A stretch of 64,000 nt of DNA from an uncultured beta proteobacterium (GTDB taxonomy: Bacteria > Pseudomonadota > Gammaproteobacteria > Burkholderiales > SG8-41): positions 36,778 through 100,777 of the forward strand of contig CAVZWF010000008.1 of assembly GCA_963778865.1 (NCBI GenBank), in the 5' to 3' direction. The notes under the pieces were generated by a model. It did not search any database. It was given only the letters and a program-made list of their open reading frames with translations, and was not told the DNA's origin. A program made the position numbers and the translations under genes. This document shows positions 2,652 to 56,023 of the stretch, in pieces. Position 1 is the stretch's first letter, and each line of letters starts with the position of its first letter.

Positions 2652-2850
2652 TTGTCAAAGACCGTAGGGATAGAGGGTGAAGGGTGAATAGTGAAGGGTG
2701 AAGGGTAAAACCGGAACCCCGAGCGTTGATCCGAAGCCCGATATTTAATTGGGAATTGGCTTGACGGAGTAAAACGGTTCGGAGCGAAGCTACCCTTCAC
2801 TCCTCACGCTTTACTCCTTCACGCGAAGCACCCTACGCAGACGGCGTGTC
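2652..2850 (+). promoter_or_regulatory. L10 leader (rplJ autoregulatory RNA), enlarged by repeat arms
   Basis: GTCAAAGACCGTAGGG (2654-2669) ... TTAAT ... CCCTACGCAGACGG (2831-2844) upstream of rplJ. Confidence 0.75.
2675..2824. repeat. Inverted pair of heptamer arrays (GGGTGAA)x5 / degenerate (TTCACCC)x~5
   Basis: Left arm 2675-2709, right arm 2791-2824. Confidence 0.85.
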
Positions 2851-2953
2851 CCGATGAATCAGGTTTGTTGCTAATGCCTGGAACTTAAGGTCGCCGTGGG
2901 TCGGTTGCGTGTGCTGGCAGAGATGCGCGGCCATTAACGAATGGAGGTAGGCC

Positions 2954-3484
2954 TTGGGTCTTAATCTGGAAGAGAAACAGGCGGTGGTGGCTGAAATCGG
3001 CGCGCAGGTTGCGCAGGCACAGGCCATCGTGGTCGCCGAGTATCGCGGCCTTGGGGTCGCAGCGATGACCGATCTGCGCAAGAAAGCGCGCGGTTCGGGC
3101 ATTTACCTGCGGGTTCTCAAGAATACGCTCGCGCGCCGCGCGGTCGCTCAGACGCCGTTCGCCGGACTGGCCGAAAAACTGGTCGGTCCGCTCGCGTACG
3201 GTATTTGCAGCGATCCGGTGAAGGTTGCGAAAGTACTGCAGGATTTTGCCAAAGACAACGACAAGTTCGTAATCAAAGCCGGCGCAATGGCCAATCTGGT
3301 CATGTCTGCAAAAGACGTGGCAAGCCTGGCCAGAATGCCGAGCCGCGAAGAACTGCTCGCGAAACTTTTGGGCACCATGCAGGCGCCGATTGCGACGTTC
3401 GTGCGCACACTCAACGAGGTGCCCGGCAGGTTCGTGCGCACCGTTGCCGCGGTACGGGACCAGAAAGAAAAGCAGGCTGCTTAG
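2954..3484 (+). CDS. rplJ: 50S ribosomal protein L10
   Basis: [25 protein letters not shown] start after GGAGG. Confidence 0.96.
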
Positions 3485-3536
3485 TTAAGTTAAAAGCGGG
3501 CGTGCTTTCACTACAGACAAATTTTAGGAGAACATC

Positions 3537-3917
3537 ATGGCATTAGCAAAAGCAGAAATTCTTGACGCAATTTCCAACATGACGGTGATCGAGCTGTCCG
3601 GCCTCATCAAGGACATGGAAGAAAAGTTCGGCGTTTCGGCGGCCGCGGCCGCGGTCGCGGTGGCAGCCCCCGCTGCAGGCGGCGGCGCGGCCAAGGCTGA
3701 GGAGCAGACCGAGTTCACCGTGCACCTCTCGAGCTCGGGTGCCAGCAAGGTCAACGTCATCAAGGTGGTGCGCGCGGTGACCGGCCTGGGCCTGAAAGAA
3801 GCCAAGGACCTCGTTGATGCAGCACCGAAAGCGGTTAAAGAAGGCGTATCGAAGGCGGACGCAGATGCGATTCTCAAGCAGCTGCTCGAAGCCGGCGCAA
3901 CGGCTGAAGTCAAGTAA
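3537..3917 (+). CDS. rplL: 50S ribosomal protein L7/L12
   Basis: [22 protein letters not shown]. Confidence 0.98.
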
Positions 3918-4052
3918 CTTGGCAGTCGAACCGGGGCTGGCGGGCAACCGCCAGCTTTTCCCTATTGGTTTTTGTGGTGGACAGGCCACGACCGAGCGCA
4001 TCGCCCGCGGTGCGCTGGGCCCTGTACCGTCTTTCACTCTTGAGGAGCCTCA

Positions 4053-53943: not shown

Positions 53944-54012
53944 CGTATCTATGACGAGCAGTCGTTTGACCGCCAGCGGTTTATTCCGCCTGCCGCGCTC
54001 CGGCGGCCTTGA

Positions 54013-54741
54013 TCACGCGGGCCAGATGCGGCGGGCGAGATTGGGCGAGCCGGGCGCGTGCACGAGCTTGCGCACGACGCGGTCGCTCCACGCTTCCTGC
54101 TCGGGATACGGACTTTCGTGGTCGAGAAAATTCTCGTTGCGCGCTTCGGCCGACGTGAACTCGTAGAGTATCGCGTGCTTCGCCCAGCCGGCGACGGACG
54201 CGTATTTGCGCACGCGCACGCAGCCCGGCATTTTCTCCATGCACGGCAGGCGCCATGTCGCGTACCACGCCGCCAGTTCGTCTTCGTCCTGATCTTCGCC
54301 GGCGTTGAAGCTGCCGATCTGTATGCACGGGCTCAACGCGATCGTGTCCAGCGGCTGGGTGGCGGCGGGGCCGTGCACGCGCGCTTCCTCGGTCATGATG
54401 TTCGCGCGCTCGCCGATGCGCATCGCCAGCATCTTGCGGTCCGCCGCCGGCAGTTGCGCATGAAATTCGCGCGGCGCCGGCCGCACGAACGCGTGCGCGT
54501 CGTCGGCGCCGAAGAGCAGTATGTAGCGGTCGCCGGTGGGCACCGCGCTGCTCTTGACGTTGGAGAGGCGGCCTTTCGCGCCCGAGAGCTTGACGTTGTT
54601 TTCGGAGGCGTAATGCGCCGCCCACTTGAAGCCGGCGCGCGCCAATTGCCTCGGTATGTAGTTGCCGTGCAGCCACTCGAGATAGGCGTCGCGGCTTTTG
54701 TCCGGCAGGTTGTACCACGTGATCCAGATTCCCCGATCCAA
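54013..54741 (-). CDS. Hypothetical protein with two EthD/dimeric alpha-beta barrel-like halves
   Basis: Repeated pattern YLEWLHGNYIP...GF and LAAWYATWRLP...PG; AAGGAGG RBS with TTG start. Confidence 0.65.
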   Translation of the reverse strand: MDRGIWITWYNLPDKSRDAYLEWLHGNYIPRQLARAGFKWAAHYASENNVKLSGAKGRLSNVKSSAVPTGDRYILLFGADDAHAFVRPAPREFHAQLPAADRKMLAMRIGERANIMTEEARVHGPAATQPLDTIALSPCIQIGSFNAGEDQDEDELAAWYATWRLPCMEKMPGCVRVRKYASVAGWAKHAILYEFTSAEARNENFLDHESPYPEQEAWSDRVVRKLVHAPGSPNLARRIWPA

Positions 54742-54827
54742 AATACGCCTCCTTTGATCTTCGTTTTGTGTGCCCGATTGTATAATGAAAAATCACGCCG
54801 GCCGTCCGCTTGCGGCGAGGGGGGAAC

Positions 54828-55802
54828 ATGATCGGTAATACGCGGCGCGGTGTGCTATGCGTCATTGCGCTGATCCTGGTTGCAGCCGCTGCGACTGCGC
54901 TCGCGCAAGGCTATCCGGCGCGTCCGATCCGCCTGCTGACGCCGGTGGTGCCGGGCGGCGGGCTCGATTTCATCGCCCGCCTGATCGCGCCGGCGCTCAC
55001 GGACAATCTCGGCAAATCCGTCGTCGTCGACAATCGTCCGGGTGCGAGCGGCGCCATCGCCATGGAAATCACCGCGCGCGCGGCGCCCGACGGCTACACG
55101 CTGGCGATCTTCAGCGTGAGCCAGGTCATCTACGCCGAAATGAACAAGACCGGTTACGACATGTTCCGCGATTTCGCGCCGGTCTCGCAGGTTGCCGCGG
55201 CGCCCTACGTGCTGGCGGTGTCGCCGCAACTGCCCGCGAAATCGGTGAGCGAATTGATCGCCTATGCGAAAGCGAACCCGGGCAAGCTCACCTACGCATC
55301 GGCCGGTGTGGCGACGCTGCAGCAGCTTGCCACCGAACTCTTCGCGTCGACGGCCGGCATCAAGCTGATACACGTGCCGTACAAGGGCGTGGCCGCGGCG
55401 TTTCCGGACATGATCGCCGGCCGCACGCATATGACGATATCCAGCGTGGCGGCGCTCGCCGGCTTGCTGCGCTCGAACCATCTGCGCCCGCTCGCGGTGA
55501 CGACCACCCAGCGCACCGCGATGTTGCCCGAGGTGCCGACGATGATCGAAGCCGGCATGCCCGGATTCGTCGTGACGCAGTGGCACGGCATCGTCGCGCC
55601 CGCCGGCACGCCGCGTGCCGTCATCGAGCGCCTGTACCAGGGTATCGCGCGCAGCCTGCAGCAGCCCGACGTGGCCGCGCGACTCGCCGCCGACGGGACC
55701 GAGGCCGTGGGCAGTTCGCCTCAGCAGTTCGCCGCGCACATGAAGGCCGAGCGCGAAAAATGGGTGCGGGCCATACAGCAGGCCGGCATCACCATGCAGT
55801 AG
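54828..55802 (+). CDS. Bug/TctC substrate-binding protein
   Basis: YPARPIRLLTP, VDNRPGASG, HVPYKG. Confidence 0.95.
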   Translation: MIGNTRRGVLCVIALILVAAAATALAQGYPARPIRLLTPVVPGGGLDFIARLIAPALTDNLGKSVVVDNRPGASGAIAMEITARAAPDGYTLAIFSVSQVIYAEMNKTGYDMFRDFAPVSQVAAAPYVLAVSPQLPAKSVSELIAYAKANPGKLTYASAGVATLQQLATELFASTAGIKLIHVPYKGVAAAFPDMIAGRTHMTISSVAALAGLLRSNHLRPLAVTTTQRTAMLPEVPTMIEAGMPGFVVTQWHGIVAPAGTPRAVIERLYQGIARSLQQPDVAARLAADGTEAVGSSPQQFAAHMKAEREKWVRAIQQAGITMQ

Positions 55803-55816
55803 ATTTACCGCTAACT

Positions 55817-56023
55817 AAAGCTTTGCCGCAAAGGACGCGAGCCCTGTCCTATCCCTTCTCCGAGGGAGAAGGGACTCGAAGCTCCCCTCTCCACGTGTGG
55901 AGAGGGGTCGGGGGTGAGGATCGACGCGAAGGAGAACCAAAGGAATGCAAGTAAGGCTCGCCGATTATTGGCAGCTTGCTTCAGTTCCGCGACAATATTC
56001 TCTCAGCAGCGTGGATTTGCGGC
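55817..56023. repeat. Second copy of the 9-mer element, interrupted by a nested double-hairpin REP-like unit (55841-55922)
   Basis: CCGCAAAGGACGCGA [insert] GACGCGAAGGAGAACCAAAGGAATGCAA matches 41686-41730. Confidence 0.8.

Follow-up and report, generated by a model that had tools for sequence, protein, structure and literature searches.

Tandem arrays of 7-nt words (heptamers), placed at stop codons and in some cases followed by a complementary run, mark the gene junctions of a 64,000-nt stretch of DNA (hereafter the window; contig CAVZWF010000008.1, positions 36,778–100,777) from an uncultured soil/freshwater betaproteobacterium. With a probability that we put at about 0.55, these heptamer loci belong, as members without a gene, to a repeat system in which PF05635 genes and toxin–antitoxin cassettes are packaged, words spread in trans and paired arms form stems in transcripts. 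The analysis covers the host genome (G000; 3.98 Mb in 15 contigs, numbered C, 63.85% complete), 28 congeners (the other G numbers) and the rplA–rplJ loci across Burkholderiales (L numbers). It follows an original prediction, made from the window alone, that at least eight loci are empty copies of a mobile or RNA-structural system with conserved architecture and unconstrained unit sequence.

Heptamer arrays are strongly enriched in the host genome. Tandem Repeats Finder (TRF) reported 233 period-7 arrays of at least three copies, compared with 15 in the block-shuffled genome used as control, and 40 compared with 9 for period 8; the array totals for periods 7, 6 and 8 were 394, 269 and 221, respectively. 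By rough gene calls (an in-house caller giving 3454 genes, with 59–74% of each contig coding), 234 of the 394 period-7 arrays are non-coding. The words mostly conform to GTGAnnn or GTRAnnn, and the commonest consensus units are CGTGAAT (29 arrays), GGTGAGC (18), GATGAGT (16) and GAGGAGT (15). Array length has a median of 4.4 units and ranges from 2 to 12.7. All 30 elements that were folded are stable, with z between –3.5 and –9.8, and the loops of hairpins built from the same word are unrelated to each other. After merging, 181 heptamer arrays are distinguished, and TGA is present in 156 of them. The original prediction that the TGA-bearing arm gives stops in all three frames and that its complement is stop-free proved to be a majority rule, with three-frame stops on the purine strand of 122/181 merged arrays and zero stops on the opposite strand of 152/181. 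Together with the arm order and the sense bias described below, the excess of arrays agrees with a design that is genome-wide and non-random.

The paired elements have a strict chirality. Among 47 pairs with loops of at most 320 nt, 46 place the purine arm first, none is reversed and one is neutral. That the TGA-bearing arm always lies upstream in the direction of transcription, as had been claimed, is automatic for such pairs, because a 5′-[GTGAnnn]n...[nnnTCAC]n-3′ hairpin reads alike on both strands; what survives of the claim is that the order of the arms is never reversed. For unpaired arrays between co-directional genes, the purine strand is the sense strand in 50 cases versus 22 (p = 0.0013), and the same arrays lean weakly towards the G-rich (leading) replication strand (43:29, p = 0.12). 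Of 53 arms that face a stop codon, 28 lie no more than 12 nt from it, compared with 9 of the 41 arms that face a start codon. A same-strand gene ends within 12 nt of the array in 66 cases; in 30 of them the array runs over the stop or the last codons and thus itself provides the stop of the gene. Furthermore, 80 unpaired arrays have a same-strand gene upstream of their purine strand, and 41 of these arrays begin within 5 nt of its stop. Stop usage at the 66 stop-hugging arrays (TGA 41, TAA 13, TAG 12) is in line with that of the genome (2057, 732 and 665, respectively).

The link to cargo is provided by PF05635, the '23S rRNA intervening-sequence protein' family of four-helix bundles; we know of no function assigned to these proteins since their discovery inside rRNA intervening sequences. 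The only PF05635 match in the host genome lies outside the window at C7:175733–176035 (E 1.1e-35; Pfam E 3.6e-36) and is enclosed exactly by the genome's strongest pair of inverted heptamer arms, 175645–175702 and 176075–176146 on C7. Across the genus, 29 PF05635 genes occur in 16 of the 29 genomes, and 26 of the 29 genes have inverted tandem-repeat arms (20 clearly 7-periodic and 4 8-periodic); one of the three armless genes is truncated by a contig end. The link to PF05635/TIGR02436 genes that the original prediction had suggested is therefore confirmed by a cargo-bearing copy in the same genome, and its suggested link to TIGR04256 is not, with no match in the host genome at 63.85% completeness.

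The insert that holds the PF05635 gene in G000 spans 1.2 kb and runs, in order, through the 5′ arm, the PF05635 gene, the 3′ arm, a DUF433 open reading frame (ORF) with a PIN-like ORF, and a further 3′ arm, which duplicates the first one (65/78 identical; score 69, where 200 shuffles reached at most 34). G035 has a copy of the cassette at 72% identity, arms included, apparently in another context, because the G000 flanks gave no match there. A Pfam scan of 76 ORFs (74 from 20 array-containing, gene-poor gaps, together with the DUF433 ORF and the PF05635 gene) revealed toxin–antitoxin parts beside arrays: DUF433, Phd/YefM, RES and RHH/TacA on C7, BrnA and three PIN on C9, PemK/MazF on C12, and HTH_3 and Gp49 on C1. 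The arrays separating cassettes are copies of one another; in the C7 island, whose GC content is 0.54–0.58 over most of 175.5–182 kb versus about 0.63, successive pyrimidine-strand arrays between cassettes are 45/54 and 48/58 identical. The 515-aa gene flanking this island has no ortholog in the genus (match in 1 of 28 genomes, at 39% identity). The stretches C7:175500–182800 and C9:274300–278600 are packed with toxin–antitoxin modules (DUF433/PIN-like, Phd, RES, RHH, BrnT/BrnA and PIN x3), separated by mutually homologous heptamer arrays in a single orientation.

Gene junctions that are otherwise tight have gained and lost heptamer elements. Three orthologous junctions show empty, gene-less hairpin or cargo states, in agreement with the presence/absence polymorphism expected among relatives. 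At the PF05635 junction, G037, G010, G015 and G012 are empty, with a stop codon, 8–15 nt and an ATG, G039 carries a hairpin of about 170 nt that has related words but no gene, and G000 carries the 1.2-kb insert. At the TauD junction (52862 in the window), five of nine syntenic relatives are repeat-free with spacers of 32–54 nt, and the other four carry a 10-mer-armed hairpin (G017 and G037), a short pyrimidine-type run (G016) or a 19-nt direct repeat (G003). At the TctC–amidohydrolase junction (49436), the spacers of three of four syntenic relatives are repeat-free (about 20 nt in G037, 3 nt in G035 and 65 nt in G040), and the fourth, G018, has (GAGGATT)x3 after the stop. Because the relatives carry different elements or none at these junctions, different repeat-armed elements have been acquired independently at the same stop codons.

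The abundance of each word differs sharply from genome to genome. Counting three-unit patterns in the 29 genomes, we found, with up to 2 mismatches allowed, 178 matches to (GAGAGGC)x3 in G031, 134 in G011, 129 in G016 and 109 in G032, 11–47 in seven genomes, 1–4 in eight (G000 having one) and none in ten; the reversed pattern, used as control, gave 1 match overall. The pattern (CGTGAAT)x3 has 56 matches in G000, 2–10 in four genomes and none in 24. In addition, a maximum-likelihood tree of the 29 PF05635 proteins contains six clades of at least two members, each associated with one word (GAGAGGC, GCGTGAG, AGGATTS, the 8-mer GTGAAGGA, a GGTGATG-like word and CAGCGAT). The idea that unit sequence is unconstrained does not hold in view of these patterns, as the words are genome-specific blooms and follow the PF05635 clades.

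The copy in the rplA–rplJ leader has a different setting. The hairpin at 2674..2824 (+ strand, as are all window features below), of GGGTGAA type, consists of a 5′ arm, (AGGGTGA)x4.7, at 2674–2706, an 85-nt interior with a conserved TTAAT motif and the complementary 3′ arm at 2792–2824 (dG –64.0, z –6.7), and lies within a conserved leader helix, flanked by GACCGTAGG and CCTACGCAGA. The rplA–rplJ spacer (window 2575–2953) carries the motif CTTTGGGC...GTCAAAGACCGTAGG, the hairpin, and CCTACGCAGAYGGCG. The leader core, from the AAGACCGT stretch to GCAGAYRG, was recovered in 95 of 106 Burkholderiales loci, and the first five positions of the closing stem are all paired in 93 of these 95; compensatory variants occur, for example GTATGG/CCATAC and GTTGGG/CCCAAC. 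The motif is a candidate for an undescribed L10-leader class; Rfam gave no match at E up to 1 for 2560–2960, nor for three short-form relatives at E up to 0.01, and 'L10 leader' is therefore a name by position only. The closest rplJ loci in public genomes all belong to metagenome-assembled genomes of uncultured Betaproteobacteria or Burkholderiales.

Across 59 loci, the interior of this leader hairpin measures 39–86 nt in 41 and 104–164 nt in 18, and heptamer-periodic arms passed the test in 9 of the 18 long forms. Rather than a free insertion, the element at 2675–2824 is a heptamer extension of the conserved helix, with its arms located between the closing stem and the retained apical TTAAT motif. 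The words at this same position are GGGTGAA in G000, G007 and G004, GAGAGGC in G016 and G011, GTGAGGC in G017, and CAGGATT in G015, G008 and G014; the remaining congeners have no clear heptamers there, and the distribution of words is out of step with RplJ identity. In G016 and G011, the leader word (GAGAGGC) is also the one that abounds in the genome. In G016, G017 and G008, it is the word that surrounds the PF05635 gene of the genome concerned, which does not apply to G000, G004, G011 and G014. In some congeners (L013, L014, L017, L010 and L011), heptamers also expand a second leader hairpin, immediately ahead of the rplJ ribosome-binding site.

The leader copy and the word counts bear in opposite directions on our main rival explanation, in which the arrays are ordinary simple-sequence repeats: slippage would expand suitable 7-nt seeds in non-coding DNA, template switching inside hairpins would mirror changes from arm to arm and selection would remove only arrays harmful to genes, with no movement and no binding. 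The leader arms, grown around a kept apical motif, fit this explanation, as do the variation in copy number from 2 to 12.7 units, the non-conserved loops and the lack of a sense-strand G·U bias; the discussion of PMC4692102, citing Mrazek 2007, ascribes the heptamer excess in bacteria to slippage. By comparison, a single word at 109–178 places in four genomes and at none in ten congeners is hard to obtain in this way, as are 56 CGTGAAT matches in G000 with none in 24 of 28 congeners, since independent seeds should yield independent words. Elements of 100–1200 nt in junctions just 3–34 nt long in relatives, the strict chirality of 46:0 and the concordance of words with PF05635 clades likewise speak against it. 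Slippage coupled with hairpin-templated correction would explain the leader copy and the array lengths, but not the blooms or the junction filling, and we consider this rival unlikely.

Each element of the proposed repeat system is a run of GTGAnnn or GTRAnnn, usually of about 4 units, on or just past a stop codon, often followed by a non-conserved loop and a complementary run, so that the DNA or its transcript can form a 20–50-bp hairpin. The words would spread in trans within a lineage, via insertion or conversion from other copies, rather than being born independently at each site by slippage, which would afterwards alter the unit number. The purine arm supplies three-frame stops at gene ends, often including the gene's own stop. 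The paired arms may act as long transcript stems, comparable to those that RNase III cuts in ORF-bearing 23S rRNA intervening sequences; neighbouring cistrons would thereby be insulated from each other, and the upstream message would keep a protected 3′ end.

Several observations weigh against this account. The three filled/empty junctions have no target-site duplication, and no enzyme, a transposase included, and no conserved loop or other internal sequence was found, so that the term 'mobile' in the original prediction stays conjectural. The leader case favours in-place growth or conversion over simple hairpin insertion, because the ancestral apical motif is retained between the arms. Arrays in the cassette islands break the general rule, since there it is the pyrimidine strand that is sense. 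Arm mismatches carry no RNA-level signature, with 55 that are G·U-compatible in the sense transcript versus 42 of A·C type (p = 0.22). Finally, the distances to stop codons carry error, because the gene calls are rough and the assembly has apparent 1-nt frameshifts.

The concordance between protein clades and words admits another explanation, in which the arrays are binding sites of a word-specific, ring-shaped PF05635 protein, with about one 7-nt unit per subunit, the dispersed arrays forming its regulon and the arms around its own gene giving autoregulation. TRAP, which binds triplet repeats, is a model for such unit-per-subunit binding. Consistent with this explanation, six protein clades match one word each, the arrays are located at stop and start codons with a median of 4.4 units, and the PF05635 protein of G000 matches PDB entry 2gsc, XCC0516 (E 1.6e-33; five chains in the entry), cited as a homopentamer in PMC4990558. 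The concordance could, however, simply mean that gene and arms are inherited together. Although CGTGAAT is the most frequent word in G000, no CGTGAAT-armed PF05635 gene was found among the 29 in the genus (G000 being 63.85% complete), and no GAGAGGC-armed PF05635 gene was found in G011 and G032, which have 134 and 109 GAGAGGC matches. Moreover, according to a suggestion in PMC4990558, Coxiella does not produce its protein in vivo. Taken together, binding in this form is rather improbable.

A combined reading, which we regard as quite doubtful, would make the arrays and the PF05635 proteins one system: each ring variant would recognise its own word, at roughly one unit per subunit, and the arrays would serve both as dispersed sites at gene ends and as landing pads or portable homology for capturing and stacking small cassettes such as PF05635 genes and toxin–antitoxin pairs. 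If true, cassettes would be handled here by a system for which no recombinase is known, and this would explain the heptamer excess in bacteria and give a 30-year-old orphan family a function.

Returning to the window, the original prediction had assigned its eight loci to one design. Arrays are indeed present at all of these places, with coordinates on which TRF and direct reading agree, but the loci split into two families, one with 7-mer arms of variable length and the other with 9/10-mer arms of three units and TGAACCGC ends. Clear repeat-armed hairpins number four (2674–2824, 41687–41836, 49436–49582 and 52862–52944); the arrays at 46744, 48368 and 55817 are without a second arm, and the pair at 44702–44806 is weak. 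The array at 46744..46832 is an unpaired (CGTGAAT)x12.7 that fills the spacer of two TctC genes, the next ATG being at 46836. The locus at 48369..48465 consists of two same-strand CGTGAAT runs (48369–48400 and 48442–48465) with no complementary arm; the runs start 5 nt past the cupin stop, and their last units overlap the GTG start of a TctC gene at 48457. The CGTGAAT-type hairpin at 49434..49582 has 5′ runs to 49514 and a 3′ arm at 49550–49582 (inverted-repeat score 40), with variant units mirrored across both arms. The AATTGAC/AATGGAC hairpin at 52860..52944 lies upstream of a TauD-family gene and comprises a 5′ arm at 52862–52886, a 34-nt loop and a 3′ arm at 52921–52944 (dG –34.7, z –8.0). 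The degenerate inverted pair at 44702..44806, an ATAAATG/CAATGAA-type run with TTGTCCATTGTCATTGTCAA, follows a TctC gene ending at 44708 and falls below the pair thresholds.

With the reading frames checked, the arrays at 46744, 48368, 49436 and 52861 do start 0–5 nt from a stop codon, as first described. TAA 46739–41 stands just before the first array. TAA 48361–63 precedes the array at 48369, in a frame supported by the G032 ortholog ending ISFKSHY. At 49434, the first unit contains the stop TGA 49434–36, read in the frame in which the protein ends with the family-typical VIKEAGIKGE, and at 52860, TAA 52860–62 overlaps the first array unit. Intrinsic terminators were rejected as an explanation of the window elements: none of the 13 terminator-like sites in 41000–57000 (14.9 expected by chance) coincides with a repeat-armed element in a scan limited to loops of at most 8 nt.

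The separate 9/10-mer family has about 18 copies in the genome and is more uniform than the heptamer family. Its layout is TGAACCGC, three units of 8–10 nt, an AT-rich loop of 70–110 nt, three complementary units and GCGGTTCA; the TGAACCGC termini are conserved and the loops are not. The units include CGCRAAGGA, CGCCAAGR, CGCAGATAAA and CACAGAGAA. The complete window copy at 41679..41844 comprises TGAACCGC, (CGCRAAGGA)x3 at 41687–41713 (as (CGCAAAGGA)x3), a 96-nt AT-rich loop, the complement x3 at 41810–41836, and GCGGTGAA. At this junction (41687–41836), the upstream neighbour is not syntenic in relatives, and the element was not seen in the upstream regions of 18 relatives. A fragment at 55826..55960 consists of CGCAAAGGACGCGAG, two unrelated palindromes at 55842–55915 and CGACGCGAAGGAGAACCAAAGGAATGCAAGTAAGG, with no 3′ arm. 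These small GC-rich palindromes, CCCTTCTCCGAGGGAGAAGGG and CCCCTCTCCACGTGTGGAGAGGGG, resemble a unit that is present in several tandem copies in the relative L067. Further copies of the family lie at C1:135298–135461, C8:16721–16862 and C12:95354–95516, and its 10-mer form occupies the TauD junction in G017 and G037.

The genes flanking the window arrays encode seven TctC-family receptors, a cupin, an amidohydrolase, a TauD-family dioxygenase, an enolase-superfamily enzyme and the ribosomal proteins L1 and L10. TctC (Bug) family receptors account for 248 of the 3454 rough gene calls genome-wide, and seven lie within window positions 43890–55802. CGTGAAT-class arrays stand beside TctC genes in 10 of 32 cases, versus 18 of 149 for other words (p = 0.013), a modest enrichment that probably reflects local clusters. 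An Rfam scan of the window matched a tRNA only. TRF also reported longer-period tandem repeats at 57282–57763 and 58085–58852 (periods 40, 63/21, 9/18 and 12/24 nt), possibly coding repeats.

Two window genes appear to be frameshifted by 1 nt. In the cupin gene (47898–48363), a shift near 48257 takes the family-typical C-terminus ISFKSHY* off the N-terminal frame, and in the TctC gene at 48457–49436, a shift near 49371 does the same to VIKEAGIKGE*. Contigs of relatives from four metagenome runs have one base fewer at 48257 and at 49371/49372, and both shifts are probably assembly indel errors. The metagenome contigs, from four runs that contain at most 0.10 of the sampled words, are short pieces from relatives; some end or diverge at the array edges 46739, 48372 and 52859, and none bridges an array. 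The arrays supply stops, overlap starts and break contigs, and thus affect gene calling and assembly.

The apparent frameshifts, along with the 15 contigs for 3.98 Mb, which suggest a long-read assembly, are what could speak for the arrays being artefacts of assembly or base calling. We give this explanation next to no credence. Arrays are also found in contigs of relatives named k141 or NODE, names that suggest short-read assemblers, and homologous arrays occupy the same leader position and surround PF05635 genes in the independent assemblies of many relatives.

Heptamer repeats after stop codons are known but unexplained; the main addition made here is the set of genus-level contrasts. In this regard, the genus is a compact natural experiment, in which word abundance differs more than 100-fold, the same junction is empty, hairpin-filled or cargo-filled, and protein clades track words. 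The question 'why heptamers?' thereby becomes testable, through protein–word binding, RNase III cutting of the stems and cassette capture by arrays.

Among known systems, the cyanobacterial STRR heptamers were reportedly described by Mazel in 1990. According to PMC4692102 and PMC4679880, heptamer repeats are over-represented in many bacteria, and their function and origin are not agreed. The Xanthomonas and Nostoc heptamers GGGAATC and GGGGAYT (Rehm et al. 2015) are in excess and lie within 50 nt after stops on the coding strand, with no function found (PMC4692102). They resemble the present arrays in being tandem, 7 nt in period, strongly intergenic and sometimes in inverted pairs, with copy number and sequence that vary at the same junction. 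Unlike them, most words here lack G-tracts (e.g., GTGAATC and GTGATGA), many words occur per genome, and the words double as arms of PF05635 and toxin–antitoxin cassettes. A run of three G is absent from the commonest words CGTGAAT, GGTGAGC, GATGAGT and GAGGAGT, and because most words lack G-tracts, the quadruplex idea is inapplicable here. The TAACTGA repeats of Beggiatoaceae, Cyanobacteria and Bacteroidetes (MacGregor 2015), for which PMC4679880 suggests horizontal spread and gives no known mechanism, are likewise intergenic arrays of 2–6 heptamers with a TGA-bearing word, patchy across lineages. They use one word, are mostly direct and sit just upstream of starts, whereas the present system has many words, mostly after stops and often paired.

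A resemblance to integron gene cassettes was noted, in the form of same-orientation, mutually homologous arrays between toxin–antitoxin cassettes. The REP/REPIN elements with their RAYT protein are short extragenic palindromes after stops, in genome-specific families, with the protein gene flanked by inverted copies of its own repeat. The arrays described here share the extragenic position after stops, the genome-specific families, the inverted doublets and a protein gene between inverted copies of its own repeat, and 7 Y1_Tnp genes of the genome pass the Pfam cut-off. Mobilisation of REP/REPIN-type elements by a Y1 (RAYT) transposase is nevertheless very improbable: heptamer arrays lie within 600 nt of 0/7 Y1_Tnp genes, 5/7 of these genes are flanked instead by a (G)GGGTCAGGCTTGG-type inverted repeat, and the arms are variable-length tandem arrays rather than a fixed GTAG-tagged palindrome. 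Here, no Y1 transposase is linked, and the flanked gene encodes a small four-helix bundle without known catalytic activity. Y1 (IS200-like) transposase genes, unrelated to the heptamers, were seen at C2:45700–55900 (four within 10 kb) and C11:192500–197200. A miniature inverted-repeat transposable element was also considered and rejected, given the unrelated loops of same-word hairpins and the lack of target-site duplication at the three filled/empty junctions.

In the literature outside supplements, no paper was found that connects heptamer hairpins dispersed over a genome with PF05635 cassettes; PMC8700078 and PMC8491059 do no more than list 'four helix bundle protein' genes, and the nearest paper is that on the Coxiella intervening sequence (PMC4990558). 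As given in that paper, the intervening sequence in the 23S rRNA of Coxiella burnetii, which carries S23p, has 2–3 tandem GACAGAT heptamers 5′ of the S23p start, varying among strains, with an RNase III cut at the first repeat; the same source (Warrier et al. 2016) cites further ORF-bearing 23S rRNA intervening sequences in Leptospira and Salmonella. In contrast with the Coxiella sequence, the copies examined here lie between protein genes or in the rplJ leader rather than in rRNA, no search of rRNA genes having been made, and most copies, including all eight window loci, are without an ORF. The two systems are alike in that complementary ends form a long stem around a PF05635-family ORF (here C7:175645–176146, and 26/29 copies in the genus), and in that an element is inserted in a helix of a functional RNA, represented here by the rplJ-leader copy.

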